Position numbers and translations under genes: made by a program
Notes under the pieces: generated by a model
Databases searched by the model: none
What the model saw: only the letters and a program-made list of their open reading frames with translations
Told to the model about the DNA's origin: nothing
Virus record (IMG/VR): IMGVR_UViG_3300005323_000042
Location: 17,433-81,432 of that record
DNA: 64,000 bases
Source of the DNA: a virus
Lineage: Duplodnaviria > Caudoviricetes
Direction: 5' to 3' (one strand)
Shown: positions 1 through 58,197 of the stretch, in pieces
How the letters are laid out: each line of letters opens with the position of its first letter
Position numbering within the stretch: the stretch's first letter is position 1

Positions 1-3000
1 CTGGCAAACCATGCTCCCGATGACCAGTCTTTTCTTTCGTCTTTATCATCTTTGCTATTTGTAGAATAACTTACAGCAATATTTGTATAGACATCACGGT
101 AATCAGCGCGCATGTTGTTACTGATAAGATTCGTTTCTGATGTGACTTGAAAATAATTTCTGAAACTACGAAGTGTATTTAATCTTGGAGTTTCTGCGGC
201 TTCCACTATCTCTTCAGCTCTTAATAATTTATCTCTGTTTGTATTGTATTTCTGCAAATTATTCACTGCCATACTGCTGAAAGTATTGCTAATACTATTT
301 AAAGGAGAATACAGATTCAAACTGTAATCGGTTGCCTGCGCAAGATATTGATATCCATTTTTAGCATAATCAGTATATGCTTCAACTATACGTCTTGCGG
401 CTTCTACCTTTGGGTTGTTAAGCGACTCACGCAACTTGAACATTTCATTCGCAGTTACCGACCGGCAGAAATAAGGACTATCTGGAGGACCAAAGAATAG
501 TGTATTTCTCATATCAAACGGAAGTACTTTTGCAACATATCCAGGATACCTGTATGTCATTTCCTGAATCATATCCCAGCATGTCAGTCTGTATATCATA
601 TAAGTCAGATTCACTCCATTGTATATTTCACCCAATGGATTTTTGATAAACGACCAGATAGTGCTTAAGGGACTTTCAACAAGTTTATTTAATTCTGTAT
701 ATATGCCTTCAAGGTTTGATTCATTCGGGGCCATAATATTAAGATCACCCTCGTTCTTTGCCCATGTCCAGACTAATTGTTTTCTTCCATCAGGTCGTAT
801 CTTTGAATAATAACCAAGGAGATTCACACCGGAAGTACCTTCGCTGAATTGCAGGTTGGATGCATTATTAAGTTTCCATCTGCCGAAATGCATTATCTCC
901 GGTTGTGTAATACACCAGTTTATTATTTCTTTTGTCTCTGCATTAAGAGTTGTTATATCATCGGGTTCCTCTTTCATCTTGATATCGTAAACAAGTTCAG
1001 CACCAAAACTCTGACAAATCATTTCAAACTCATGATTATGCCCATCGATTGCTGTTACTTGGCCATTGAACACGGTATTCAGTTCGTTAATATTATTACT
1101 ATAACCCATACGGCACTGTATTGTCGTACCTTCTTGTAGCATGATGCCACGTAACGGATTTTCAAGTTCAGTATCGCGTACGACAGTATCTTTATTCTCT
1201 GTGTTCGGTGTAGGCTTATACCGTGCAGAAGTAAATTTTCCGGTCAGATCTATAAACCTTATTGTAATTACATCAATAGGCTGATCGCTATGTTGTACCA
1301 GTCTGATTTCCTGTATTGCATTAAGACCAAACATTTCATTGAGATCCTGTTGCCGTAACGGATAAAGCTTTTCGGTTGTATCTTCTTCGATAATATAGAT
1401 TTTATAAACAGGAAAACATCTTGTCATGTCGAACATTCGTTCAACAGAGGAATTTGCAGCAGCTCTGCGTTTAAACAGAGTTGAGACAAAAGTGTCATCT
1501 TCAGAATATGAAAGATAGTTTTCCGACTGACCATTTTTAAACATCTGTACGTTTATGGAATTCTCAATTCGTCTATCACTACTGTCCGCAAGATTGGGAT
1601 ATATATTATTGACCTGAAATTTTTTATTCAGTGCCGTGGACTTATTTGCTACAGTCTGGGAAATTTCATGTGTAAGATTATGTGCAGTCTTTGATGTATA
1701 CGGTGTACTGCCATTGTTATCGACATAGAACTTCATAGAATCTACACTACTGTCGTTGCCGATAAGTGCTTTGATTATGTTGTCGTTATTGGTAGAATAA
1801 CTATATGTACTTAACTGTTTTGTATACTGCTGAAAACGTTCAACTATTTTTTCTACTTCTTTTTTATGGCGTAGTTCTTTTTTCTGATTGCTATAGGAGT
1901 CAAAATATTTACGTGGCTGATAAAAATAATAATCCGGAGTAATTGTCGGAGGCAACTGAAAATCCATATATGCCGACTGTTTGATCGTTCCGATCTCAGC
2001 TTTGATTTCTGCAGGATATAATTTCTGAATAGACGGAAAATATTTATAAAGTATTTCTGAATATTTTGAAACCCATAATTTCAAAACTTCATACAATTGC
2101 ATACCTGTTTTATTATCGTTGATTACTTTCTGCACATCGGCATTAAGATGTATGTTTATTCCATAAACGTCTTTCTGACCAGATTTCCAGTATATATCAG
2201 AAATATTCTCGAGTTCATCAATCAGTTTCAGGATACAATCTTTTACCTGTAACTCTTTTGCTTCTTCTACGTCGGTATGAGTATTTGTATTTGTAGCGCA
2301 GGTGCTGTCCTTGTATTTATTAGCAATCCACCGTACAGTTTTATAATTATCATCAAGAGCAGATGCAACTTCACCGCGTATGGCATTGGCAGCCTCTGAA
2401 AGATGTATTGCATAACTCGGTGTACCGATACTTGTGCCATCTGTTGATGGTGGGGTGACTGTATTTGTAAGTTTACGGTCTTCAAGCCAGGCTGAAATTT
2501 TAAATGAAGACTTGCTAAAAACGAGTTGCAACAGGTCTTTATAATATCCTTCTATGGTTAAGTTTTCCTGTCCAAATCCGAAGGCTTCGTTCATCTTTTC
2601 ACGTACCTGTGTAAAATCGGTCATTGCAATACTTACCAAAGAAGCACCTGGAATTTCGGGACTTGTTTGAATGTTTACGTTATCGACAATAAATCTATTG
2701 CCACCCTGAACAACATTTATATAACCATGCTTGATGCCAAGTCCGTCAACAGACGCTACTTCTCCGAATCTTATCGTATTATCAGATATAATATTGAGTA
2801 TCTGTTGAAGCTTTATAAGTTGCGCATCGCCTGCCTCTCCATTAATACTTATATTCATATTGACTTTTTCGACATGTCCTCCAAGCCATTGATGTGTTGC
2901 ATATTTATAACCTGACAATGGTATCCGCGGAATTTCGTTATAACCGACATTACTCAAATATGCAATCTGAAAATTCGTATTTGTCTTTAAGTCAACGGTC

Positions 3001-4814
3001 CATTTATGTGCAATACGTACATAAATAGTATCTGTATATACATTGGGCCTCAGTATATCAAAACTACCGGCGGGGAGTGAATTTAAAAAATTCTGCACTT
3101 CCTTTGTTTTCTTTGATTCAGTATCATTTAATACGACAACAGTTTCAGTCATCTTCTCTTTTGACACTGCAGAAACATTTACTTCCGGCAAAACATTTGG
3201 ATTCGCAACATTGATATTATCATTGTCCGGAATGCCCATATTATAACCTTTGTAATAGGTAGTAGATTTTTTACTGGTTGCTGTTTGTTCTTCTTTCTGA
3301 GTCTTGACAATTTCTTCAAGTTCTTTTCTTGACTTGGCTGCTGTTTGGTAAGATGTGGTGTCAAAGATATATTTTTCGGGATCCTGTCTCGTACCATGAT
3401 ATATTACTTCATAGTGCAGATGTATGCCGGTTGAATCGCCTGTACTTCCGGTATTGCCTATATTCTGTCCTTTAACAACCTTCTGTCCGGAATTTACAGC
3501 AAAGGAAGACATATGTGCATAGAATGTCTTATAACCTGATCCATGGTCGATCTCAATACAGTTGCCGTAACCTCTTCTGGAACCAACAAAAGAAATGATT
3601 CCCGCAGCTGCAGCCGATATAACTTTCGGACTTCCGGTTGCAATATCTATTCCTGTATGCATTTTATATGTCTTGTGTATAGGATGTAGTCTCATGCCGA
3701 ATTTACTAGTTATCTTTCCACTTACAGGTTTAATGGAAGGGGTAGTATCAAGACTGTCTGCTATAATAACTTCATCAATAGCTCCTTTTGGAGTGTTTGC
3801 CATGAAATCTTTTACAATTACTTTTGAAGTCTGGTCCGCAGTCAGATACTTTAATTTTAATTCGAGATATGTAAAATACTGGAATTCAATACTATTATTA
3901 TTAAGATCATGATTGTATTCGTTTAATACAAAACCATTATCGGATATACGTCTTTCAAGTGTCTTATATTCTTTTGCAAAGAACTCATAGAAGGCTTTGC
4001 TTTTACCTGTAGTAAATACAGCCGATGACGGACTGAATATTTTTCCGTTGACGGCATTCGGATGACGAAGTATAATTGTATTGTCACCATCTTTGCCTAA
4101 AGGACCACGTTTATAATCGCCGACAAAAACAACTCTATCCATAAACGGCAGGTAGTTAAACAACAAAAAATCAAATGTAACGCGTATGATTTCAGGAGAT
4201 TCAGGATCTGTCTCCATCTGATGGGATTGATATGTAAGCATTATTTCAATGTCTTCGTTATCTTCAATCTGATCTCCTGTCACTTCTATGGCGGCTGCAA
4301 CGAGGCGTTTGCGCAAGTATTCATTTCTCACATGGCAGAAAGGCATTGTCCTTAATTGTGTAAGCAGTGGAATGAGTTTATAACGGATTTCATCACTTAG
4401 TGTAACCGGTTTATTTTTGATATTAACAAGAGGATTTGCAGTAAACAACAGCGAGATACGAACTGAAATTTCTCCATGTCCGGTATCAAGTTTAACAGAA
4501 TGCTTGCTTCTTATCTGTGGTATATCTATAGAGTTATTATTAATACTTACCGCAATGTCCTGTGGCGGTATTGTAAACCAGATATCATTTATTAACATTG
4601 CCCCCGGTTGACTGGAAGCTTTAGCCGCAAGTGTATTATTATATTTTTTGTAATTAGCCACAAAAGAATCTGACCGAAGATAAGTCTGCAGGTCATTGTC
4701 AAATATTCCTTTCTCTGCATTTGACGTATATAAATATTTGCATACTTCCTTGTACCAGGTGTCTTCAAGTTGTAGAATAGATGAAGGAGCATTTTGTGAT
4801 TTGGTAGTGGACAT
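1..4814 (-). CDS. Very large (>1600 aa, partial) tail/baseplate hub-like protein with an internal M23 (LytM) peptidase domain
   Basis: ATG at 4814 with SD AGGAG upstream. The frame runs off the left edge, so it is absent from the ORF track. M23 motifs HTGIDIA, GYGNCIEIDH, YAHM and GDSTGIHLHYEV lie at about 3390-3720. The distal part (CRMGYSNNINELNTVFNGQVTAI, TCWDMIQEM) resembles hub proteins. Confidence 0.75.
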   Translation of the reverse strand, partial: MSTTKSQNAPSSILQLEDTWYKEVCKYLYTSNAEKGIFDNDLQTYLRSDSFVANYKKYNNTLAAKASSQPGAMLINDIWFTIPPQDIAVSINNNSIDIPQIRSKHSVKLDTGHGEISVRISLLFTANPLVNIKNKPVTLSDEIRYKLIPLLTQLRTMPFCHVRNEYLRKRLVAAAIEVTGDQIEDNEDIEIMLTYQSHQMETDPESPEIIRVTFDFLLFNYLPFMDRVVFVGDYKRGPLGKDGDNTIILRHPNAVNGKIFSPSSAVFTTGKSKAFYEFFAKEYKTLERRISDNGFVLNEYNHDLNNNSIEFQYFTYLELKLKYLTADQTSKVIVKDFMANTPKGAIDEVIIADSLDTTPSIKPVSGKITSKFGMRLHPIHKTYKMHTGIDIATGSPKVISAAAAGIISFVGSRRGYGNCIEIDHGSGYKTFYAHMSSFAVNSGQKVVKGQNIGNTGSTGDSTGIHLHYEVIYHGTRQDPEKYIFDTTSYQTAAKSRKELEEIVKTQKEEQTATSKKSTTYYKGYNMGIPDNDNINVANPNVLPEVNVSAVSKEKMTETVVVLNDTESKKTKEVQNFLNSLPAGSFDILRPNVYTDTIYVRIAHKWTVDLKTNTNFQIAYLSNVGYNEIPRIPLSGYKYATHQWLGGHVEKVNMNISINGEAGDAQLIKLQQILNIISDNTIRFGEVASVDGLGIKHGYINVVQGGNRFIVDNVNIQTSPEIPGASLVSIAMTDFTQVREKMNEAFGFGQENLTIEGYYKDLLQLVFSKSSFKISAWLEDRKLTNTVTPPSTDGTSIGTPSYAIHLSEAANAIRGEVASALDDNYKTVRWIANKYKDSTCATNTNTHTDVEEAKELQVKDCILKLIDELENISDIYWKSGQKDVYGINIHLNADVQKVINDNKTGMQLYEVLKLWVSKYSEILYKYFPSIQKLYPAEIKAEIGTIKQSAYMDFQLPPTITPDYYFYQPRKYFDSYSNQKKELRHKKEVEKIVERFQQYTKQLSTYSYSTNNDNIIKALIGNDSSVDSMKFYVDNNGSTPYTSKTAHNLTHEISQTVANKSTALNKKFQVNNIYPNLADSSDRRIENSINVQMFKNGQSENYLSYSEDDTFVSTLFKRRAAANSSVERMFDMTRCFPVYKIYIIEEDTTEKLYPLRQQDLNEMFGLNAIQEIRLVQHSDQPIDVITIRFIDLTGKFTSARYKPTPNTENKDTVVRDTELENPLRGIMLQEGTTIQCRMGYSNNINELNTVFNGQVTAIDGHNHEFEMICQSFGAELVYDIKMKEEPDDITTLNAETKEIINWCITQPEIMHFGRWKLNNASNLQFSEGTSGVNLLGYYSKIRPDGRKQLVWTWAKNEGDLNIMAPNESNLEGIYTELNKLVESPLSTIWSFIKNPLGEIYNGVNLTYMIYRLTCWDMIQEMTYRYPGYVAKVLPFDMRNTLFFGPPDSPYFCRSVTANEMFKLRESLNNPKVEAARRIVEAYTDYAKNGYQYLAQATDYSLNLYSPLNSISNTFSSMAVNNLQKYNTNRDKLLRAEEIVEAAETPRLNTLRSFRNYFQVTSETNLISNNMRADYRDVYTNIAVSYSTNSKDDKDERKDWSSGAWFA

Positions 4815-9196: not shown

Positions 9197-12100
9197 TTAA
9201 TAGTGAAACAATCCCATATCGCGCATTTTCTCGCGTATATCTTTCTTATTATTTTGCTTACCTTGAAAGTCTATAACAGAAGATCCTCTTATGGGAGTAG
9301 AAATTATCCTGGCATCATGCATACCAAGGTTTGTAAGATAATTCTGTATATCATTTTTCGAAGTTATTGAACTGGAACTGGGAACAGGTGTTGGCATATC
9401 TCCGTAAAGATCTGTCGTTGCGTCGAGTATTTGTGCCTGCCGTTCGTCTTGCCGCCAGAGATCAAAGTCACGAATATTCTTGCCAAGATTATTGGCTACC
9501 TTAACTTTGAAAGCATTGAGATTAACGTCGGGAGCGTAACCTATAAAATTTCTATCAGGTACATTATTTCCGAGTACAACCGGTTCCGTAGTAGTTTGAA
9601 CAGGCGCCATATTGCTTTCTAATTGTTTTGCAACATCCAGATCATGCATTGTCATTGCATCACTGTGTGCCCAGTGGGCATTTAACACCTGTGCTGTCTG
9701 AGGATTAATTGTTTGTAATATCTGACTGCGTTTATCAGTTTCTGTTTCGCCTGCAAAAGCAGCGAAGAATCTTTGTTCTCTTTTTGGAAGCAGACCAATT
9801 GCATTGGATATATTGGCCAACGGGTTAGAACCCTCAAGTGCCGCACGCTTACCGGACCTGTAATATGCCGCGGCTTCAAACTCGCCTTGCTCGGATGCGA
9901 CATTGGCTTTTTCCTCAAGTAGTCTGTTTTTCGCAAATTGCATTGCCGAAAAGTAACTGTCCAGTTCCGCATTTTCTGCAGTTTCCTTTGGAATAAAATT
10001 ACCAAAGGTAAGGATGTTCATTGTTTTATTGATGGCAGGTTTAATAAAATCCTTGTAAGGATGTTCCCATGATTTAAATGATTTGTCGAGCAATACCATA
10101 GATTTATATTCTGTCATAGGATCTACCGGACCTGAAAACTTGTGCATAGGTGCAATTGGATAGAGAGATTCTGTCGGAAGCATTCTGCCTGCTTTCTTTA
10201 CGGCAAGCCAATAAGCACCGAGTGGACCGCTGCCGGTATCGAATCTTGTATCATTTTTTACTTCCTCTTCTCTGCGTAAGGTTTCCTGGTAGAGATTCAC
10301 ACCGGCCTGATTAAGCTGGTTATTTATTATCTGACTTTCAACTGCGTTTCTGAACATATGATATTCAGCAGAATACGGGGCAACATCGGAAAGAATCTGC
10401 ATTTTATGTACAGCAGGGTAGTCGTCTGGATTCAATCCGCTCAGGTAAGGATACAAAGTTTCATAACCTCTACCAGGCAATCTCAATTCACCATTTTCAA
10501 TAATCGAGAAAGGGTCACCGTACTTAAGATCTTCACGTCCTATCCATTCGGGCATTTTGTTTCTGATAGCTGCATGAACATATTCGGTATCATAATCTCT
10601 GTCTGGGTTTAATCTTCTATACCATTCGTTTAATCCGGCCAGATCTCCAACGTTCTGATCCCAATAAGAACGTTGTGCAGACATGATTCTACCGGAAGAT
10701 TCATAACGCATGGAAGGAATTATGAACGATTGTCCACTAGCCATCGTATCTTTGACAGACCTTAATGCAAAACCCTGTAAGCCAAAGGTATCAGTCAATG
10801 ATTTGCCAAGTTCAGATGCATAGCCCTGAACAGTTGACGGGGAAGTAATCGTCGGATAAATTCCCTTTGTACTTATTGCATCGATTCCATTTATAGATTC
10901 CGGTATATCCGCTGTAATCTGTGGCTCCTGTGCCGGATGTAATTTGCCGGCTGTCTCCGGATGTGCAAGAACAGTTGGCTTCAATACCTGCTTTAAAGGA
11001 CTGAATAGTTTTTCGGGTAACCCTGCACCATAGTCTGTTGGCCCCCAGTAAGCATAAGGCCGTTCCTCATCAAGCGCACGTTCCATATAATATGGATCAA
11101 ACAATCTTTTTATAAAACGCTTAACAGGTTTATTATAATATTCTTCAGGCATGATGCCTTTTTCACGGGCGTCAGTTTTTGCCCGGACAGTCCAATGCGG
11201 TTGATAATAATCTATTTCTCCGCCTTCAAACGGAGTATTACCCATAGTCCAGAACCGTCCTCTGCGGACAGGTATCCATTCTTCACCATGATAAATTTTA
11301 TTAAGTTCTTCGGGCGTCTTATTGGATCCAAGGGAACCAAGCAAGAATGGAGTAATGACAGCAGCGCCAATTGCAGCACCGGTCATGGCGAACGCGCCAA
11401 CACGACCTTTGCCGGTAAGATTAGCAAGACGTGCCGCTTTGCCGGAGATACCACCTAAACTTTCTGCCTTATAAGCAAAATCAAAGAACCATTTTGGTGC
11501 GGCCATTTTTCCATTCAATGGCGCCCTGCCGACATTAGACAGTCCTGCAATAGTACCGCCTGCAATAGCGCCGGTCAGTAGCACCGCAAGAAGCCCCGTA
11601 AACTTATGTGTACCAGGAGCTTTCTCTTCCTGGTATTTATTCAGAGCAGTAAGTCCTGTTTTCTCAGAGACATGGGAATATAATTTTGTTACATCCTGGT
11701 AAGCCTGTGCGGCTATACCTTTTGCATCAGTACCAAGGACTGATTTTAATACTGCATTACTTATTTTCCATGCAGCTATACCGGCAATGATTTTTGGGAA
11801 TCCATGTGTAATATGGCGTTTCCATAATCTTGCTGTATTACCACGAAGATAATTTGCACCACCTACACCAAGCTGGTCGCGAAAATATTTATTGTATAAC
11901 GATCCGACTTTCTTAAATGTTCTTCCACCAAGACCCTGGTCAGCTTCAAGTGCCCGGTACCACTTGGTCTTTGACAGGTTGCCGAATAACTCCATAGGGT
12001 TATCAAGCAAGCGCATATAATTTTGTGTTGCAACAGTTGTCCATGCAGAAGCGGTTTCGCCGAATGCCCGAAGTTTTGATGTACCACCGGTTATTACAAA

Positions 12101-12703
12101 ATCACTGTCAGGAATATGCAGATTATATTGTTCATATAATGCTTTGGTAAACCTCGACATTCTGTTTCCGGGACCGGTTTTGCCCGGGACGACTTTTGCA
12201 TATTTGAGCAATATATCGTCAATTCCGGATTGGTTCTGATAAAGGAGTTTGCCATTCTGAAAACGCATTCTGCCGGATTGCAGATGCGCATTAGTAATTT
12301 TTCCACCGGAAATCTGCTTTAAGTAATCGCCTTGTTTGGTAAGCCACTCTGGTTTCAGATTGATGGCAAGATTAGAATAAACCCTGGCGCCGTATATACT
12401 CGATGCAGAAAATGCGCGCGGCATTTTGAATAACTGTTCTTCGGCAACAGCCATTGCATTCCATATCAGATCTCTTACAGTTGCAGTCTTTGCGGTACGG
12501 TATGTGTGCCAAACGTCGCCGTTGATAGTAAACTTATCTGCATACCGGAGTTTTGTAATATCTATCTTTGTTGGAATCTTACCAAGAACATAATTCAAAC
12601 CAACAACAGCAGCACCCTTCCAGGCCATAGATATGGTTGTCTCGAAGGGTGACTTTTTGTAAGACTCGTTCTGTGAAGAATATGTGGCGTTTTTAAGATT
12701 CAA
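9197..12703 (-). CDS. Probable tail tape measure / large virion protein (1168 aa)
   Basis: Lies directly downstream of a tail-chaperone-like gene. Has Gly/Ala-rich hydrophobic segments. Assignment rests on synteny. Confidence 0.5.
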   Translation of the reverse strand: MNLKNATYSSQNESYKKSPFETTISMAWKGAAVVGLNYVLGKIPTKIDITKLRYADKFTINGDVWHTYRTAKTATVRDLIWNAMAVAEEQLFKMPRAFSASSIYGARVYSNLAINLKPEWLTKQGDYLKQISGGKITNAHLQSGRMRFQNGKLLYQNQSGIDDILLKYAKVVPGKTGPGNRMSRFTKALYEQYNLHIPDSDFVITGGTSKLRAFGETASAWTTVATQNYMRLLDNPMELFGNLSKTKWYRALEADQGLGGRTFKKVGSLYNKYFRDQLGVGGANYLRGNTARLWKRHITHGFPKIIAGIAAWKISNAVLKSVLGTDAKGIAAQAYQDVTKLYSHVSEKTGLTALNKYQEEKAPGTHKFTGLLAVLLTGAIAGGTIAGLSNVGRAPLNGKMAAPKWFFDFAYKAESLGGISGKAARLANLTGKGRVGAFAMTGAAIGAAVITPFLLGSLGSNKTPEELNKIYHGEEWIPVRRGRFWTMGNTPFEGGEIDYYQPHWTVRAKTDAREKGIMPEEYYNKPVKRFIKRLFDPYYMERALDEERPYAYWGPTDYGAGLPEKLFSPLKQVLKPTVLAHPETAGKLHPAQEPQITADIPESINGIDAISTKGIYPTITSPSTVQGYASELGKSLTDTFGLQGFALRSVKDTMASGQSFIIPSMRYESSGRIMSAQRSYWDQNVGDLAGLNEWYRRLNPDRDYDTEYVHAAIRNKMPEWIGREDLKYGDPFSIIENGELRLPGRGYETLYPYLSGLNPDDYPAVHKMQILSDVAPYSAEYHMFRNAVESQIINNQLNQAGVNLYQETLRREEEVKNDTRFDTGSGPLGAYWLAVKKAGRMLPTESLYPIAPMHKFSGPVDPMTEYKSMVLLDKSFKSWEHPYKDFIKPAINKTMNILTFGNFIPKETAENAELDSYFSAMQFAKNRLLEEKANVASEQGEFEAAAYYRSGKRAALEGSNPLANISNAIGLLPKREQRFFAAFAGETETDKRSQILQTINPQTAQVLNAHWAHSDAMTMHDLDVAKQLESNMAPVQTTTEPVVLGNNVPDRNFIGYAPDVNLNAFKVKVANNLGKNIRDFDLWRQDERQAQILDATTDLYGDMPTPVPSSSSITSKNDIQNYLTNLGMHDARIISTPIRGSSVIDFQGKQNNKKDIREKMRDMGLFHY

Positions 12704-49093: not shown

Positions 49094-49762
49094 TTAATAA
49101 TTTGACACAAAAAGTGCCTGTTGTATATTTGGAAGATAGGGATTGATCCTCTCGCAAAATCGAATCAGGTCATCCTTAAACGCCGTAACACCACTTCCCA
49201 GCAATATAATTTTTAATATAGCACCTACAGCCAGCCCATAAGACTGTTCATAACCAACCGCGCTGTATGCCCCTCCTTCACTTATCACAATACTTCCCCC
49301 GGCATAATTAACAGTAAAAGATTTTTTGACTGCCTTGAAAATTTTTGAACATGAATTATACGAATTCAGCAATTTTACGGGCCATGTTGCTTCAGGTATA
49401 TCTGCATGTATATAAAGAATAAAAATAAATGTCTGAAGTAATTTTTCTTCATATAGAAACTGAATTGTACTATTTGGACCTGGAAAAATAGTTCTCTCAT
49501 ACTTCAATGCGGGGCAGTCAATACAATGTCCTTGCGCCCGCAGCAAGGCATAGTTTTCAGGAAAAAATATAGAAGGATTCACCTGTAGTACATCAGCAAT
49601 AGAATTAAGTTGTGAATATCTAGGTTCTCTTTCACCCGTTAAAAACCTTGTTAAATCACTTTCTGCTATTGCGGCGCTGGAAGAGAGTTCTTTTTGGCTT
49701 ATCCTTTTTTCCTTAATAAGCATAAGTAGAATATCGGAGAATTTTTCTGTTTCGCTTTTCAA
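49094..49762 (-). CDS. XRE-family HTH regulator with CxxC and a cupin-like C-terminal domain
   Basis: ISQKELSS...I.ESDLTRFLTGEREP HTH and CIDC. TTG start with SD GAGGT. Confidence 0.8.
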   Translation of the reverse strand: MKSETEKFSDILLMLIKEKRISQKELSSSAAIAESDLTRFLTGEREPRYSQLNSIADVLQVNPSIFFPENYALLRAQGHCIDCPALKYERTIFPGPNSTIQFLYEEKLLQTFIFILYIHADIPEATWPVKLLNSYNSCSKIFKAVKKSFTVNYAGGSIVISEGGAYSAVGYEQSYGLAVGAILKIILLGSGVTAFKDDLIRFCERINPYLPNIQQALFVSNY

Positions 49763-49891
49763 AACGACCTCGTTGAAAAATGTAAAAAATCCGTTATTTA
49801 ATATCCAACTATAAGTCCCTCCCCTTAGATATATCTAAGGAACCGAAATATAAATGAGATTAAATAAACATGTCAATGGTTTTGGAAAATA

Positions 49892-50515
49892 TTATTTCTG
49901 TTTTGGAAATTTCTCCAAAATCTTTTTCGGATTTGTTGCCATTAGATCGACAAGTCGCGGTACATTTTCGCCGGTGCCGAATACAAATAATCTTGTATTG
50001 TCTTTGTAAGATATAACATTTGCATCGCCTGAATTTACGTATGCAAAACTTCCGGGGGCCAGTGATACAAGTGGTCCGCCCTTATTGGAATACGAAACAC
50101 CCCCTTTAATACAGAAAACAAAAAAGTTAATTAAGAACTTCTTCGATAGACGACTTGTAACCGGCGGTTCGTTCATTATAGAATCAATATACAGCAATAG
50201 TGCAACACATTTATGTTGCTTGTCATAGAATAATAACTGAAAACGAAACGGATATTGAGCACTAATAGGTTTATTATACTCGTATCCGCATTGTGGGCAA
50301 TTGATATTGTTACTACTCATTAGGTCCAAAGGAAAAAACGACTCAACCTGCAGATTGAATGTGCGCATAATATCTATCAATTGGTCGTACTTTGGTTGTT
50401 TCCCCTGATTGAGCATTTTTGAAAGCTCACTATTTGAAATTCTTAATAAAGCGGCAGCGTCTTTCTGTGGTATATTAAGATTATCAATAGCACTCTGTAG
50501 GTACTTACTAAACAC
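49892..50515 (-). CDS. XRE-family HTH regulator with CxxC and a cupin-like C-terminal domain
   Basis: IPQKDAAALLRISNSELSKMLNQGKQP HTH and CPQC. GTG start with SD GAGGG. Confidence 0.8.
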   Translation of the reverse strand: MFSKYLQSAIDNLNIPQKDAAALLRISNSELSKMLNQGKQPKYDQLIDIMRTFNLQVESFFPLDLMSSNNINCPQCGYEYNKPISAQYPFRFQLLFYDKQHKCVALLLYIDSIMNEPPVTSRLSKKFLINFFVFCIKGGVSYSNKGGPLVSLAPGSFAYVNSGDANVISYKDNTRLFVFGTGENVPRLVDLMATNPKKILEKFPKQK

Positions 50516-51483: not shown

Positions 51484-54114
51484 ATGTTATATTCAATTTG
51501 GGCTCTTTTAACATTGCTCTTAGTAAGTCCTTCAATAGAGAAGGCAAAAGAGCTTCTCGTTATTGTTCACAATGGATATCTAGGTAAAAGCATCAGATTA
51601 TACTGGTATTATATCAGCATAGATGCTGTAGACAAGGCTAAGGAGATAATCCAAAAGCTAAATCATAATACAATCATTAGACAGATAATAAATCACAGCA
51701 AACTGGTAGAAGATTTACCGGTTGTTGTGGCTTATGATAATAAATACAGGCCAATCTGGTATTTATCGAAGAGAAAAGCGTACACGCAAACCATAATAGA
51801 TAAGGATGGAAATGAGGTAAAGGTTACGATTCCGCCAGTCTATCAAAGACCACAACTATTTCCGGAAGTTCTGGAAATGGTATGGAACATCATCGAGAAA
51901 GGAAAGAATATTGGGCAATCAGTCGGCATTAATTGGACCGACAAGAAAGGCCGGAAAAGATATAATACAATCGTATTGAAACCAGAAGAAAAGATCACGG
52001 TGAAAAGCCGTGAGTATATGTTAATTGCCAGTGGTAAAAATAAGACCTTCTACTGGCCAACAGATGTTCCGATTCCTTCTGAATTGAAACCTTGGATTGA
52101 ATCTAAAAACATTCAGTCCAAGAATGATTTTGTAGCTGGCCTGAAAAGGCATGGCCACACAGAATACATCAAAGACATTGATATTACTGTTCAGGAAGAA
52201 CATCAGTTCGATCTTGGAGCTGTAGTACTTCCAAGAGAGGTAGTTAAACAACTGTCGAAGAGATTTGGATTCGATGTGAATCTATCTCAAATCACTATAT
52301 GGTTCGAAGACGGAACATTCTTTAAGGGGACTGTTGAGTCCGATGAGTTCTCGAAAATGCCGGTTGGCTATTATGGTGGATTAAAATCCGCCATTAGCAA
52401 ATATGATGGTAAAAATAAGGTAAAGGCGCTAAAAATCGGCGCAAGAGCGATTAGAATGAACGTATTGTCTAATTATAGAGTGCAACCCTGGGAGGCAACC
52501 GCAAATCATCAGCAATTCACCTATACTGGCAATAAAATGCCAGTTGTAGTTGAACCGGTTAACAATGAGTTACTTGCAAAAATATGTCTTGGTGAGCCGG
52601 GCATCACTATGCAAGCCCAACAAGAATTCTTGTCCAATATCTCACGTGCTTTACATAAATTTAATGTATCTGGCTATGCGGGCCAGATTGGTGCATATTG
52701 CGATACGTCCTCTGCAAACTTTATTATCTTCACAAGCGACCGTAAACTCAAGAATCAGATCAAAGAATTCACATTTCTTTGGTCGCCATTCTTACCAGTG
52801 CATACTGACCTTATGAAGGTGCTGGTGAAATTTATGTATAAACCAGATTACGATGGTGTGATCTGTTTGAACACAAATGAACAAAATATGGAATGGATAG
52901 ATAGATGGTTTATCCAATACGCAGGTCGTGACTGCGACGGTGATGGGATTGTGATTACTGATGATCCAAGAATCATATCGCTTGCAAAGAATGTACCTGA
53001 GATTCAGTGGTACAACACAGTGCAATTCAAAGGCGAAACGCCAGTTGACTGTACTAATAGCCATCTTGCATTAATGATGTCTTATAGTAACATAATTCTA
53101 CATTCAGGAATCGTCGGAACATTCGACAACTTTGCCAGAAGAATAATAACCGAGAGGCCAGCACTTATGACCTGGGAATTAAGAGTAAGACTAACCAAGA
53201 TCATACAAATGGGTATAAGTTCGGTCAAGAAACACGTTGACGATGAGGATTTAAATAATCCGTTTATCATTTATAAGATTCTTGGTCTTGACTATAAGAC
53301 TAATGAATGGCTCAGGAAGTCAACAATAGATTTCAAAAAAGAAGTCGTTGAGGTTGTAAAGAAACTGAATGGAACAGTGCAGAAATTAATGTTCATTAAG
53401 GAAGGACAAGATCCTGAAGTGTTCAAATTAGAAATAACTGAACTCTATCAAAACCTACACGAAAAGTTGGATAAAATTGAACTAGCCGATCCAAAAGCAG
53501 TTAAGGCTTTCACCTCTGCGGTGGAAGCGGCGCAGGAGTTCACTTGCGAACGTTCTGCATACTTCAACATGAAAAATATCGGCAAGTCATTATTGGCAGA
53601 AGCAAAAGCTGTTGACATCTTGGCAGCAGAAATATTGCTAGCTGAGATCAAAGATCTCTGGTACAGAAAAGACGATGAATCTCAATCTATTGCCGAGGAA
53701 ATCGGCTTAGATTTCAATGAAATCAAAGACTTAATAGAATACCAGATAGAAACATCAGAGATAGAACCAAGAGCTTTATTTGGTGTTCTCTTATCAAATC
53801 TATCTTCAAGATTTCTTACCTCTATCATTTCAATGGAGCAAATGCTTCAACTTGATAGATTATCAGGACAGAATATGTACTGCTCATATTCCATTCCTGT
53901 TAAGAATAACACATTGCATGTTGGGCAGAGATTAACATTCGGCCAACTGTCAGCAAGAGTTCCAATGTCTCAGTTGTTGGCAGAAATGCCAATTTGTGAT
54001 TATTTGATTAAAGACATTAAGCAGGCTCAATATTACAATTGGGCCAGCAAAACAGGTAATATTCAGCAGTCAAATTATCTGTTGAAACTAGTACCTGTAT
54101 TGGACAATAATTAA
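51484..54114 (+). CDS. YonO/RdRP-like single-subunit two-barrel RNA polymerase (876 aa)
   Basis: Catalytic AGRDCDGD at 52921-52944. FDLGAVV...SQI...FKG upstream. GVICLN before the motif and ITDDPRII after it. Downstream GTFDNFA...QMGISSVKK matches the order of RdRP-family motifs. Confidence 0.7.
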   Translation: MLYSIWALLTLLLVSPSIEKAKELLVIVHNGYLGKSIRLYWYYISIDAVDKAKEIIQKLNHNTIIRQIINHSKLVEDLPVVVAYDNKYRPIWYLSKRKAYTQTIIDKDGNEVKVTIPPVYQRPQLFPEVLEMVWNIIEKGKNIGQSVGINWTDKKGRKRYNTIVLKPEEKITVKSREYMLIASGKNKTFYWPTDVPIPSELKPWIESKNIQSKNDFVAGLKRHGHTEYIKDIDITVQEEHQFDLGAVVLPREVVKQLSKRFGFDVNLSQITIWFEDGTFFKGTVESDEFSKMPVGYYGGLKSAISKYDGKNKVKALKIGARAIRMNVLSNYRVQPWEATANHQQFTYTGNKMPVVVEPVNNELLAKICLGEPGITMQAQQEFLSNISRALHKFNVSGYAGQIGAYCDTSSANFIIFTSDRKLKNQIKEFTFLWSPFLPVHTDLMKVLVKFMYKPDYDGVICLNTNEQNMEWIDRWFIQYAGRDCDGDGIVITDDPRIISLAKNVPEIQWYNTVQFKGETPVDCTNSHLALMMSYSNIILHSGIVGTFDNFARRIITERPALMTWELRVRLTKIIQMGISSVKKHVDDEDLNNPFIIYKILGLDYKTNEWLRKSTIDFKKEVVEVVKKLNGTVQKLMFIKEGQDPEVFKLEITELYQNLHEKLDKIELADPKAVKAFTSAVEAAQEFTCERSAYFNMKNIGKSLLAEAKAVDILAAEILLAEIKDLWYRKDDESQSIAEEIGLDFNEIKDLIEYQIETSEIEPRALFGVLLSNLSSRFLTSIISMEQMLQLDRLSGQNMYCSYSIPVKNNTLHVGQRLTFGQLSARVPMSQLLAEMPICDYLIKDIKQAQYYNWASKTGNIQQSNYLLKLVPVLDNN

Positions 54115-54526: not shown

Positions 54527-55186
54527 ATGCAAAAAAGAAAAACTTATCAGATAGTAAAACAGAATGAACAATACCCAGCCAATCGTGTTGGGTATTTTGC
54601 TAATGTGACCTGGGATGAAGTCCAGGTGTTAAGAATGAAATTAGGTCTGGTTAATGGATACCAGATAAACAGCATTATCGGCACTGGCGAAGGGAAGTTA
54701 TTAAATCCTACCATCGAACATGCAACAGCACCACAAATGACAGTTGCAGAGAATACAGATAAAAGACCTATAATGTCCTTGTCAGTTGATGCCTGGACAA
54801 GCGGTAACCCAGGCATGGGTGGATGCCGATTAGTAGGCGAATATAAAGGACAGGTAAAAGAGTTGTCCACATATACATCTAAAGCTCCTCACTCCAATAA
54901 TTTATTTGAGCTTGTAGCTGTGCTAATCGCACTGAGATGGGCAAGTAAAGAAGAAAATAGAATGGGCAGTGAAATCTATTCTGACAGCAAAACTGTTTTG
55001 GCCTGGATTACAAAGGCAATGGAAGGCAATAAGAAGATACTGGGACCAAAGGTCAATGAACGTGAATTGATTGAAAATACTCTATTGGATATCAAACTTC
55101 TAATGGAGCAAACGAAAGTCAAATTAATTAAATGGAACACAGAACTGTGGGGCGAAATCCCGGCAGATTTTAACCGTAAAAAATAA
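54527..55186 (+). CDS. rnhA: Ribonuclease HI with a degenerate N-terminal hybrid-binding domain
   Basis: SVDAWTSGNPG, SNNLFELVA, IYSDSK and C-terminal W.TE.WGEIPADF.RK. Confidence 0.85.
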   Translation: MQKRKTYQIVKQNEQYPANRVGYFANVTWDEVQVLRMKLGLVNGYQINSIIGTGEGKLLNPTIEHATAPQMTVAENTDKRPIMSLSVDAWTSGNPGMGGCRLVGEYKGQVKELSTYTSKAPHSNNLFELVAVLIALRWASKEENRMGSEIYSDSKTVLAWITKAMEGNKKILGPKVNERELIENTLLDIKLLMEQTKVKLIKWNTELWGEIPADFNRKK

Positions 55187-55197
55187 GGAATATAACA

Positions 55198-56499
55198 ATG
55201 GATATTAAAGAAACATTAAAAATCTTCTCATTCCTGCCGGCTGTTCATGCAGTCGGCGGATGTGTCCGCGATTGGCTTATGGATATTCCATACCATGACA
55301 TTGATCTTGCAACAGCGGCAAAACCGGAAGAAGTTATCAGTTTATGTACCGAACACGACATCGGTACAGTCAATACTGGAATAAAATCCGGCACTATTAC
55401 CGCTTATGTTGATGGTATTGGCTACGAAATAACAACGTTCCGTTCTGACCATAATCAGGATGGGAGGCATGCTGATGTTAATTATGTTTCCACTATTGAA
55501 GAAGACCTGGCACGCAGAGATTTTACAATCAATGCAATAGCAATAGATACTGACGGTAATGTCATTGATCCTTATGGCGGGGTCAATGATATAGCGTTCT
55601 TTAAGAGAATCAGGGCAGTCAGAGATCCAATCCAGAGATTCAGAGAAGACTATCTCAGAACTCTCAGAGCTGCACGATTTGCCGCAAGATTCGGATTCAG
55701 GATAGACCCAAGAACACTAAATGCCATGACATGTTTATCATGGCGGATTCAGAAGTTTGTTTCTCCAGAACGGGTAAAAATGGAGTTCGATAAGGCTTTT
55801 CAGGACAGCCACCCCGACAAGTTTATCGATATACTATTCAAAACAAGAATTCTACAACAGATATTTCCTGAATATTCTACAGCAGATAGACTCACCCACA
55901 ACCACGAATATCATCCTGAAGGGCCGTTACTTGAACACATAAAAGTTGTAGTCTGTCGTGCCGTTCCAGAATGCAGATGGGAAGCATTTCTGCATGACAT
56001 TGGGAAAACTATTACGTTCAACCAGAGTGTAAATGGTGAATACTACAATTACTATGACCACGCTGAAATCGGTGAGGTATTGGTAAACGATATTGCAGAC
56101 AGATTAAAATTTAGCAACATACTTAGAGCCTCTTGTGTTGCAGCAACGAAATACCACATGATGCCGGCTATGATAATGAATGCCGATTGTAAACACGAAA
56201 GAGCAATCAGAAGATTTCAGAATATTGCTGGAGAATATTTGGATATGTTGCATCGTCTCTGCTACGCAGACTTAATAGATAGAAAGTCATACGACAAAGA
56301 ACTATTCGACAAAATCTTTACACCACTACAACCTAAACCGAAACCAATAGTATCTGGCAAACAAATCCTCGCAAGAGGATATAAACCAGGACCAGAGATT
56401 GGCAAAATTCAACGCATCTGTCAACAGTATTACATAGAAACAGGCATTGATGATCCCGGGATTTTACTTGATGCAGTTATAAGTGGCAATTTAAATTGA
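55198..56499 (+). CDS. cca: CCA-adding tRNA nucleotidyltransferase with an HD domain
   Basis: VGGCVRD, DIDLAT, EITTFR, DLARRDFTINA, EDYLR.LRAARFAAR and LHDIGK motifs. Confidence 0.9.
   Translation: MDIKETLKIFSFLPAVHAVGGCVRDWLMDIPYHDIDLATAAKPEEVISLCTEHDIGTVNTGIKSGTITAYVDGIGYEITTFRSDHNQDGRHADVNYVSTIEEDLARRDFTINAIAIDTDGNVIDPYGGVNDIAFFKRIRAVRDPIQRFREDYLRTLRAARFAARFGFRIDPRTLNAMTCLSWRIQKFVSPERVKMEFDKAFQDSHPDKFIDILFKTRILQQIFPEYSTADRLTHNHEYHPEGPLLEHIKVVVCRAVPECRWEAFLHDIGKTITFNQSVNGEYYNYYDHAEIGEVLVNDIADRLKFSNILRASCVAATKYHMMPAMIMNADCKHERAIRRFQNIAGEYLDMLHRLCYADLIDRKSYDKELFDKIFTPLQPKPKPIVSGKQILARGYKPGPEIGKIQRICQQYYIETGIDDPGILLDAVISGNLN
56487..56498. promoter_or_regulatory. Operator candidate CAATTTAAATTG at the end of cca
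   Basis: Perfect palindrome overlapping TTGACA, at the start of the non-coding region. Confidence 0.6.
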
Positions 56500-56569
56500 C
56501 AGACTTTAAACTGATCAGACATTATTTTTAGACCTACCAAAAATTACAACATTCTAAGCTTCCACATAT

Positions 56570-57710
56570 TCAACTCCGCTCCGTTTCCGGGTCTTCGGAA
56601 ACTGCCGGGGTCTTCCGGCAAAGCAGTAGACTGCTTGGAGCTTCGTCTGGTCTTGGTCTGGTCAGGTCTGTCCACGGGCGATTGATTGCTGTTATCCAGA
56701 ATGGCAATCCGCTGACACCGTAGATGTCTTTACTCCTATAATTTATCATTACAGGCTCCGTCCCCACCGTGGCATCCCTATGTCACATATGTGAGCCAGA
56801 AGAATTAAAGGGAGCACTCCCACAGTCAGTCAATGACGTGTGCTCCTTATTCCTCTTTGGTCAGGTCGGGTCTGCCAAGGGGTGAAAGTCGGATTGGCGA
56901 CTATAAATAGTGCATCAGGCCAATCGCGTTGACATTTGTCAGGTTGCAATGCTCAACGTTGCAGGTTCTGCGGAGAACCCAAAAGTCCGAGCCAGCCGTA
57001 ACAAAGCAGGGATGGTGTTCAACTTAAATTGTTGTCAAAACAGGCCATCGAAGACCTACATTCTATTACCCTATTACGGTTTCTTCTTGTAAGTGTAAAA
57101 AGACTGGATAGACAGATGTGAAAACACCATCTGCGGTCAGGTAAGACAGAGAGCCTGACCTTGAAAATAAGAACGACTGTCAGTACTTCACTGTTGCTAT
57201 GTCCCTTGAGCAAGGAATGCAAATGCAGTGATTAAAGATATGAAATTCAAGGAAGGAAAAGTTTATCCATATCGGCGAAGTCCCTTAACGAACACCGGGT
57301 ATGACACCCTGGCTATTAGGCGCAGTAATGAACGGCGCGTTCCCAGAACAAGTAGATTCTACGAATGTAATGCGGTGTATGTGACTAATACATTATAGGC
57401 ATTCGTGCGGAGACTGTACCTAAAAATTCAGTTGGCGGGTTCACTGCCAGTAAAGTGTTGAACACTCTAATAGCAGGAGTGAGTATGTTATGCATTGAAA
57501 ACTTAGTAGCAATGCGATCACGGCGAAAAGCGTTAAAGCTATCCATTGTGGTATGCCAAGACCTAACAGCACAGCAATAAGACTGTTAGCGAGCGATTAC
57601 AATGACGATAAGGTGGCTCTTAAGGTGCAAATACAGCACCCGTCGGGCAACGGACTATGAGTTTTTGTCTTGTTTACGAGAACCGGCACGCCCCGATTTG
57701 ATTCCAAATG
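56570..57710 (+). ncRNA. Hairpin-dense, apparently non-coding region (candidate large structured RNA and/or origin)
   Basis: More than 15 short stems visible by eye, raised GC and no convincing ORFs. The strand is tentative. Confidence 0.4.
57020..57031. promoter_or_regulatory. Operator candidate CAACTTAAATTG (reverse complement of the 51386 copy)
   Basis: One mismatch from the perfect palindrome; adjacent to TTGACA on the minus strand. Confidence 0.5.
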
Positions 57711-57716
57711 ATTATA

Positions 57717-57861
57717 ACCGATACCTCTGCGGCGCGAAAGTTTTGACCTATTATTTACCAGACCCAATAAGGCAGCACGCCTGAACAGTCTGGATAAGAA
57801 CGGCCAAACCTGCCGCAGGGGATACGGATTTAAGAGAGTTCGAATCTCTCTATCGGTCCCA
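57717..57861 (+). ncRNA. 145-nt tRNA-like RNA (acceptor stem, T-arm and CCA; a long rod replaces the D and anticodon arms)
   Basis: ACCGATA/TATCGGT 7-bp stem, GAGAG-TTCGAAT-CTCTC T-arm, then C-CCA. Inner CCTCTGCGGC/GCCGCAGGGG and CCAGAC/GTCTGG helices. Confidence 0.7.
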
Positions 57862-57879
57862 ACTAAATATGGGCATTTT

Positions 57880-58197
57880 ATGTCTATTAATAGTCTCATT
57901 GTAAGGTTTCCAATCTGCGAAGAATTAAACAATTTCAGAATTAGTCCCGAAGTTGCAAAAGAAGTTTTAATACAATCAAAAAAAGGAGATGATCTCTCTA
58001 TTATTCCTTGCTTTGGCAGGGAAGAACGGACCCTTGCAATAGATTCATATTGCAGAATCGGCAAGATTCCTAACCAAAACAAGTACCTCATCGTAATGGA
58101 TGATGGATGGCACATCGAATGGTGGAAACACTGGCAAAAAAGACTTGCCTGCATACTTGCTGACTATGTGGAAAGCAAACTAAATCCATCATCTTAA
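57880..58197 (+). CDS. Hypothetical protein
   Basis: Intact ORF co-oriented with the early region. Confidence 0.6.
   Translation: MSINSLIVRFPICEELNNFRISPEVAKEVLIQSKKGDDLSIIPCFGREERTLAIDSYCRIGKIPNQNKYLIVMDDGWHIEWWKHWQKRLACILADYVESKLNPSS

Follow-up and report, generated by a model that had tools for sequence, protein, structure and literature searches.

A Pistol ribozyme and a tRNA mimic in a long non-coding gap of a phage genome

Does a gene-free stretch of about 1 kb in an otherwise gene-dense phage genome encode one large structured RNA, or is it assembled from smaller elements? The question arose from a first-pass annotation of a window of 64,000 nt (the whole stretch of DNA analysed here), which lies in a viral contig of 81 kb rated 61% complete. 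Positions 56740-57710 of this window had been described as free of ORFs, packed with hairpins and a candidate for a large ornate RNA, with GOLLD and ROOL as comparisons. In our analysis the flag on this locus was justified in part: the stretch is non-coding and structured RNA is present, but a single large RNA is unsupported. We put a probability of roughly 55% on the reading in which the gap forms an early spacer that is non-coding and transcribed, made up of several small independent elements (Table 1) and not of one RNA.

Table 1. Features of the gap and of the genes upstream of it, in window coordinates.
Feature	Position	Strand	Description and evidence
RNase H gene	54527..55186	+	Pfam RNase_H 2.4e-08, PHROG 531; second gene ahead of the gap
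tRNA nucleotidyltransferase (CCA-adding enzyme) gene	55198..56499	+	PHROG 2244, 1.2e-73; stop codon abuts the gap
Palindrome CAATTTAAATTG	56487-56498	+	operator-like; overlaps the promoter-like site
Promoter-like site	56496-56525	+	TTGACA-18-CATTAT; 10/12 matches in promoter scan
Compact four-way junction	56578..56640	+	closing stem GCUCC/GGAGC, three hairpins
GGTC(T/A) repeat clusters	56649-56669 and 56859-56873	+ only	window-wide maximum of GGTCT density
Pair of stable hairpins 5' of the Pistol	56754-56797 and 56809-56848	+	fold; window z
Pistol self-cleaving ribozyme (RF02679)	56887..56948	+	62 nt; 49.5 bits, gathering score 34.5
Hairpin pair at the start of the predicted 3' product	56945..56979	+	UGCAAUG/CGUUGCA and GGUUCU/AGAACC; fold of 56944-57090
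Palindrome, copy 2	57020..57031	+	one mismatch; inside the gap, 533 bp from the first copy
Unassigned non-coding sequence	57032..57716	+	mean z -0.29; periodicity 0.83; Rfam noise only (E ≤ 10)
tRNA mimic	57717..57861	+	145 nt; 7-bp acceptor, T-arm, encoded CCA; z = -4.1

A non-coding gap and its ribozyme

The reported lack of ORFs was borne out, and the gap proved wider than first noted: it spans 56500-57880 (1381 nt), contains zero ORFs with coding character and is the largest in the window. The window is indeed gene-dense elsewhere, the second-largest gap being just 969 nt. The gap 56500-57880 is non-coding. Under a codon model trained on the long genes of the same phage, its small ORFs reach at most 0.08 bits/codon, compared with 0.15-0.33 for genuine phage genes, and its 3-base periodicity is 0.83, where coding chunks have a median of 7.2 and a minimum of 2.4. 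No protein remnants were returned when all stop-to-stop frames of the gap were searched against Pfam and PHROG at E ≤ 0.1. Small proteins encoded in the gap were ruled out by negative codon scores, found for a 185-aa minus-strand ORF proposed by public gene callers (57597-58154, -0.18 bits/codon) and also for a 31-aa ORF downstream of an AGGAG at 57485. A gene hidden by stop-codon reassignment was ruled out as well, reading through a single stop codon opening a frame of at most 173 codons, and so was a decayed gene, given the absent periodicity and the lack of any Pfam or PHROG remnant. The ORF that bounds the gap on the right (57880-58197, 105 aa) is itself doubtful as a gene; it scores 0.076 bits/codon with weak periodicity, and neither a Shine-Dalgarno sequence nor credible relatives were found for it. 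Because of this weak support, the non-coding stretch may reach to about 58300.

The locus recurs on six further metagenome contigs at 99.9-100% identity, the longest of 181.5 kb, while blastn against phage records found no relatives of it. The CCA-adding enzyme encoded upstream matches Pfam PolyA_pol (7.7e-31) and PolyA_pol_RNAbd, and HD weakly, below cut-off. Its nearest relatives, most of them cellular, share 41-47% identity with it; this cluster, being cellular or non-syntenic, is uninformative for the gap, as are the 80 viral CCA-enzyme loci that were compared, each with at most 36% identity. A search of viral contigs with the enzyme's peptide gave no usable relatives. As lineage marker we used the 876-aa RNAP-like protein encoded upstream of the gap, which has one distant homologue, on contig L092, and whose profile, run against viral and metagenome contigs, returned L092 again and nothing else. 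The RNAP-like and RNase H genes of L092 are separated by two gene-poor gaps (1.1 and 0.5 kb), in a similar position, with zero sequence similarity to the window and zero Rfam matches. By these sequence comparisons the phage lineage is an orphan among the collections searched, and because of this no generalisation is drawn yet. The host probably belongs to the Bacteroidota/FCB group, since a sorting domain of type IX secretion (T9SS) is present in the product of a neighbouring gene.

An Rfam scan of the 64 kb at gathering thresholds gave a single match, a Pistol self-cleaving ribozyme that covers the model over its full length (model positions 1-68 of 68; E = 5.1e-06 for the 64-kb window and 1.5e-9 for the contig). 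We aligned it with 14 further Pistols from 11 unrelated viral contigs (n = 15), which had been found by their core pattern and then confirmed with Rfam. The window copy keeps 27/27 invariant and 5/5 near-invariant columns, with the A-rich linker and the GCGU included in its conserved core, and all 19 tested pairs are formed, namely 5/5 in P1, 4/4 in P2, 4/4 of those tested in P3 and six in the pseudoknot. Across the 15 copies, the helices are paired in 100% (P1), 77% (P2) and 95% (P3), with compensatory changes, and 92.9% of cells are paired (P1, pseudoknot, P2 and P3 base), compared with 74% in shuffles and about 40% for slid partners. The pseudoknot, in which the P1 loop pairs with the internal loop between P2 and P3, is 96.7% paired with covariation in five of its six pairs. 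In the window copy it reads GAUUGG/CCAAUC, a sequence unlike those of the other copies, with complementarity retained by compensation. The GATTGGC/GCCAATC stem of the first-pass annotation is therefore genuine as a pairing and corresponds to this pseudoknot, and its CGTTGA/TCAACG stem is an alternative pairing that would compete with the active Pistol fold. Sequence and covariation together identify the element as a complete member of the Pistol class. Its score lies near the bottom of those of the phage copies (47.9-78.5 bits), because P3 is short (5 bp) and one G is inserted after the linker.

Pistol ribozymes cleave at a two-nucleotide junction, usually GU, which separates P3 and P2 (PMC4604425). 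In the window copy this junction consists of the 2 nt G56943-U56944, and cleavage is predicted at G56943^U56944. Since the cut would fall at the P3-P2 junction, the ribozyme would stay on the upstream product. Near the 5' end of the downstream product, the predicted hairpin UGCAAUG/CGUUGCA competes with ribozyme helix P2, and the GGUUCU/AGAACC hairpin next to it had already been listed by the annotation, as had CGTTGA/TCAACG. Cores of permuted Pistol, hammerhead, twister and hatchet ribozymes were not found in the gap by Rfam at E ≤ 10 and motif search. Among the comparison Pistols, nine of 14 lie at most 10 nt from an upstream stop codon and six have the next start no more than about 30 nt away. 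The window Pistol is located 387 nt past a stop codon and more than 900 nt ahead of the next plausible gene, and simple mRNA punctuation fits it poorly because of this distance from genes.

Other elements of the gap and alternative readings

The right end of the gap is occupied by the tRNA mimic. Its acceptor ACCGAUA/UAUCGGU is a perfect helix of 7 bp with discriminator C and an encoded CCA, its T-arm is canonical (GAGAG-UUCGAAU-CUCUC), and one long rod stands where the D and anticodon arms would be. This tRNA-like element is specific: on neither strand of the 81-kb contig does the canonical T-arm motif occur anywhere but here, a perfect acceptor partner lies 117 nt upstream of it, and 0/200 shuffles fold as well. 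It is not called by ARAGORN in the 81-kb contig nor by RF00005 at E ≤ 10 in the gap. An intron-split tRNA was considered and rejected, since ARAGORN with introns and a lowered threshold gave only implausible calls with kilobase 'introns'. The exact 3' half of the mimic has no match in viral and genome contigs, and a search for long tRNA-like elements by other viral CCA enzymes did not find the same design; the tRNAs near such enzymes on L072 and L031 have D arms and long inserts in the anticodon loop.

At the left edge, the palindrome CAATTTAAATTG is one of five copies in the window, compared with 0.88 expected, a count that 0/100 shuffles reach. The copies all lie in early-region non-coding DNA, two of them at the gap and the other three ahead of the RNAP-like gene, beside two HTH-repressor genes. 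By its form the palindrome is a putative operator, and the promoter-like site beside it a putative promoter which would place a transcript start near 56532; shuffled sequence yields promoter-like matches at least as often as this region does. The hexamers are of the sigma-70-type consensus, which may not apply to the probable Bacteroidota/FCB-group host. Further into the gap, two of the three hairpins of the four-way junction share identical GUCU tetraloops, and for the surrounding 56570-56700 the MFE structure equals the centroid (z = -2.3). Window 56540-56659 reaches z = -2.9 on the plus and -4.5 on the minus strand. Six copies of GGTCT stand within 330 nt (56560-56890), compared with 0.15 expected (40-fold enriched), with no reverse-complement copies in the same 330 nt. 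The GGGTCTTC-hairpin pattern was found in viral contigs at unrelated loci only, and judged by their spacing these matches are probably coding tandem repeats. Of the two hairpins 5' of the Pistol, the one at 56809-56848 is the GGAGCAC/GTGCTCC stem noted previously, and 56740-56859 has z = -4.2 on the plus strand compared with -1.0 on the minus strand.

These elements raise the alternative that the gap is mainly a control region at the DNA level, made up of operators, promoters and protein-binding repeats or serving replication or packaging, with the Pistol and the tRNA mimic as passengers. The over-representation of the palindrome, its restriction to early-region non-coding DNA and the arrangement of its copies (two 533 bp apart in the gap, three ahead of the RNAP-like gene) argue for such a role, as do the one-strand GGTCT arrays, which resemble iterons, and the region of the four-way junction, which scores at least equally on the minus strand, as a DNA inverted repeat would. 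However, the GGTCT units follow one another at 5-6 bp and keep to one strand, which better suits a single-stranded nucleic acid than binding sites in a duplex, and the G+C content of the gap is slightly raised above its surroundings, not below them (0.44-0.50 vs about 0.40), with a cumulative GC skew that shows no turn. A complete ribozyme and an equally complete acceptor/T-arm/CCA module would moreover be left unaccounted for. As an account of the whole gap we consider this reading unlikely; a DNA-level role for part of it may coexist with a transcribed spacer.

A single large structured non-coding RNA of a new class, closest to what was originally proposed, would have its 5' end made by the Pistol and its 3' end by the tRNA mimic, with a middle of 770 nt whose functional fold escapes thermodynamic prediction. 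Large phage RNAs exist, and their MFE z-scores can be unremarkable. The largest non-coding gap of a gene-dense phage, its slightly raised G+C content, the two RNA-processing elements that bound it on the same strand and the unusual distance of the Pistol from genes are all in line with such an RNA. The folding energies, which the annotation had named as a possible refutation, are not. The 971 nt of 56740-57710 fold with z = -1.46 on the plus strand (about -1.5) and -2.00 on the minus strand, and the mean z of 120-nt windows is -0.50 in this flagged stretch and -0.29 for 56950-57716, no better than coding DNA (three coding regions of this phage give -2.1, -1.06 and +0.25). Only about 56540-56660, 56740-56860 and 57700-57860 have a local z below -3. 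Both the whole stretch and its middle of about 770 nt thus fold no better than shuffles, and the middle of the gap has no excess structure. Nor is the stretch hairpin-packed in a way that would set it apart. The listed stems exist, and the stretch has 13 perfect stems (6 bp or longer, loops of at most 40 nt), compared with 6.8 ± 2.8 in dinucleotide shuffles (p about 0.025), but this density is ordinary for the genome because equal-sized coding chunks of the same phage carry 10.5 ± 3.6. Long-range inverted repeats that would join the ends of the gap are estimated to be at chance level.

The comparison with known RNA families points the same way. The proposed Rfam search did find an RNA, the Pistol, but a permissive cmscan of 56300-58100 at E ≤ 10 added only five chance-level matches to it, and the models of GOLLD, ROOL, HEARO, OLE, raiA, group I/II introns, RNase P, tRNA and tmRNA went unmatched. 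With GOLLD and ROOL the locus shares a long ORF-free stretch in a phage; it differs from them in having no model match at E ≤ 10, no adjacent tRNA genes, no excess predicted structure and no homologues showing conservation. The tRNA genes that were expected nearby are absent, as ARAGORN finds zero in the 81-kb contig. In addition, the second palindrome at 57020 within the stretch suggests subdivision at the DNA level, and the similarly placed gap of L092 is devoid of sequence similarity and of Rfam matches. We hence regard one large RNA as quite unlikely.

A phage that encodes a CCA-adding enzyme usually has tRNA genes too, and the presence of such an enzyme gene directly upstream, yet no tRNA in 81 kb, together with a mid-gap region that has neither coding nor structural signal, could suggest a decayed tRNA array or lost genes, eroded to one tRNA-like relic and junk; this is very unlikely, with not even a weak tRNA-model match (E ≤ 10) and no protein remnants in the gap, with T-arm and 7-bp acceptor perfect and the CCA present, unlike erosion, with the locus 100% identical in contigs of several samples, and with the contig falling short of the full genome (about 181 kb), so that tRNAs may lie elsewhere.

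Transcription and processing of the spacer

We return to the gap as a composite transcribed spacer. The Pistol, the tRNA mimic, the GGTCT repeats and the flanking genes all lie on the plus strand, and no convincing plus-strand terminator was found in 56500-57880, where the lone terminator-like site (57463-57481) has a T-poor tail. It is for these reasons that we favour an early spacer that is transcribed.

Transcription would enter by read-through from the RNase H and CCA-adding enzyme genes and/or from the promoter-like site that the operator-like palindrome overlaps. The nascent RNA would fold the four-way junction and the hairpins, and the Pistol would cut itself at the predicted site, whereupon the upstream RNA would gain a 2',3'-cyclic phosphate and the downstream RNA would be released with a 5'-OH and two hairpins at its start. 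An acceptor/T-arm minihelix is the known recognition unit of RNase P and of CCA-adding enzymes. About 770 nt downstream, the tRNA mimic would present such a minihelix to the host's RNase P and 3'-end enzymes, and the CCA-adding enzyme encoded next door may recognise it as well. A second cut of the transcript would therefore follow from recognition of the minihelix by RNase P and the 3'-end enzymes; it would fall at the mimic, just ahead of small genes, and leave a 145-nt CCA-ended RNA. Transcription itself, both cleavages in vivo and the roles of the released fragments are what we infer here.

Several features of the locus sit uneasily with this course of events. There is a single Pistol in the 81-kb contig and no array, which counts against the composite spacer, and the placement of the Pistol, a promoter known by its consensus only and the doubtful downstream ORF are further points of this kind. 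The middle fragment of about 770 nt is assigned no role in it.

Going beyond the composite spacer, one may picture a non-coding RNA of about 0.9 kb (56944-57861) with a Pistol-made 5' end and a 3' module that RNase P cuts off and the CCA-adding enzyme of the phage keeps CCA-tipped, from which the 145-nt mimic is released as a decoy or sensor. We judge this very improbable. If it were true, it would be a phage counterpart of MALAT1/mascRNA maturation, and the anticodon-less mimic of 145 nt would be the decoy or sensor for host enzymes or defences directed against the 3' ends of tRNAs.

Relation to known systems

The window copy shares with the Pistol class (Weinberg et al. 2015; Harris et al. 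2015, PMC4604425) the helices P1, P2 and P3, the pseudoknot, the linker, the GCGU and the GU junction, and with many of its members the location in a phage. Pistols have been reported near phage genes (PMC4604425), whereas the window copy is buried in non-coding sequence, with no gene directly adjoining it. Self-cleaving ribozymes are thought to cut phage transcripts into shorter units (PMC3088659). As in the phage operons punctuated by hammerheads (Perreault et al. 2011, PMC3088659), a self-cleaving ribozyme stands here in a same-strand run of small genes and would plausibly cut a long transcript; those hammerheads are clustered and flank genes, in contrast to the one ribozyme per 81 kb seen here, 387 nt from the nearest gene end.

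The closest parallel in composition is the tRNA-flanking theta (HDV-like) ribozymes (Kienbeck et al. 2024, PMC10879173), in which ribozyme, tRNA shape and CCA-adding enzyme come together, as they do here. In gut phages with these ribozymes the gene of the CCA-adding enzyme is 250-fold enriched (PMC10879173), and their host phylum, Bacteroidota, is the probable one here too. The differences are equally clear: the ribozyme is of another class and stands about 770 nt upstream of the tRNA-like element, whereas theta ribozymes stand immediately 3', and the tRNA-like element lacks an anticodon arm and has its CCA already encoded.

The solid result is that an orphan phage carries a further Pistol ribozyme; Pistols are common in phages, and the setting of this one is slightly unusual, namely a long non-coding spacer beside the genes of RNase H and a CCA-adding enzyme, upstream of a tRNA mimic without anticodon. 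We know of no established biological role of Pistol ribozymes. For this reason, and because the ribozyme seems to process a non-coding RNA and not an mRNA boundary, the locus has modest value as a test case. A link that ties phage ribozymes to tRNAs and CCA-adding enzymes has been reported, and the locus echoes it; its interest lies in how the elements are combined and in the possibility that ribozyme and tRNA mimic jointly mature a non-coding RNA.

tRNA-like elements and neighbouring reading frames

In the tRNA mimic at the right end of the ORF-free gap (56500-57880), the D and anticodon arms are replaced by a single long rod. The locus of a CCA-adding enzyme lies directly upstream, and the T-arm motif is the only one in the 81-kb contig. 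The minus-strand ORF that public gene callers draw across the mimic is probably spurious, since its codon score (bits per codon, modelled on the long genes of the phage) is negative. For the competing plus-strand ORF, no relatives were found among 1.8 billion representatives.

Tracts of 40-55 nt are inserted in the tRNA-like elements of L072 and L031, two viral contigs that each carry a CCA-adding enzyme gene. Both elements, one of which encodes CCA, look like tRNA genes with inserts in the anticodon loop; ARAGORN returned no call for either.

Coordinates of the features (positions refer to the window unless a contig is named)
Feature	Position	Strand	Remarks
Palindrome CAATTTAAATTG	50813, 51386, 51416, 56487, 57020		5 copies vs 0.9 expected
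CRISPR-repeat-like hairpin, weak	56354-56386	+	CRISPR-DR18, 22 bits vs cut-off 50, E = 0.69
Four-way junction	56578-56640	+	two identical GUCU tetraloops
GGTC(T/A) arrays	56649-56873	+	one strand only, after the junction
ORF across tRNA mimic	57597-58154	-	185 aa; codon score negative
tRNA mimic	57717-57861	+	145 nt; perfect acceptor stem, canonical T-arm, discriminator C, encoded CCA
ORF competing with the 185-aa ORF	57880-58197	+	105 aa; weakly supported
tRNA-like gene	L031:2228-2344	+	normal acceptor, D and T arms; anticodon-loop insert
tRNA-like gene	L072:694-826	+	normal acceptor, D and T arms; anticodon-loop insert
T-arm-like hairpin followed by a Pistol ribozyme	L100:2063-2162	+	hairpin GCGTG-TTCGACT-CGCGC
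Four Pistol ribozymes	L104:4604-6659	+	in 2 kb of one viral contig

Folding signal and gene-poor regions

The first kilobase of the gene for the 876-aa RNAP-like protein (51500-52500, plus strand) displayed a mean z of -2.1 (folding energy against shuffled sequence, 120-nt windows), far more stable than the shuffles, with half of the windows below -2. This signal exceeds that of every part of the gap, of which the first-pass annotation had described 56740-57710 as hairpin-packed. In L092, the only distant relative found for this phage lineage, two stretches poor in genes, 1.1 and 0.5 kb long (10743-12602), separate the RNAP-like from the RNase H gene. They contain CA-rich repeats of low complexity, as well as a motif resembling a T-arm near 12465; they gave no Rfam matches and no similarity to the window. 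Contig positions 1-4800, upstream of the window, contain a single ORF of at least 100 aa in 4.8 kb and may be a further gene-poor or small-gene region. The CRISPR-DR18 match, which falls inside the gene for the CCA-adding enzyme, at its 3' end, is probably due to chance.

Pistol ribozymes and candidate binding sites

In the unrelated viral contig L100, a bona fide Pistol ribozyme begins about 17 nt after the end of the T-arm-like hairpin. Most of the ribozymes in L104 adjoin stop and start codons, and this stretch is a ribozyme-punctuated gene block of the classic type.

All copies of the palindrome are confined to non-coding DNA of the early region, where they often overlap TTGAC(A/T), and two HTH-repressor genes are located nearby (49094-50515, minus strand). 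The copies, with pairs spaced 533-603 bp, resemble an operator set. In the junction and array region, GGTCT is enriched 40-fold with no reverse-complement copies; the four-way junction and its arrays are possibly a site for an RNA- or single-stranded-nucleic-acid-binding protein.
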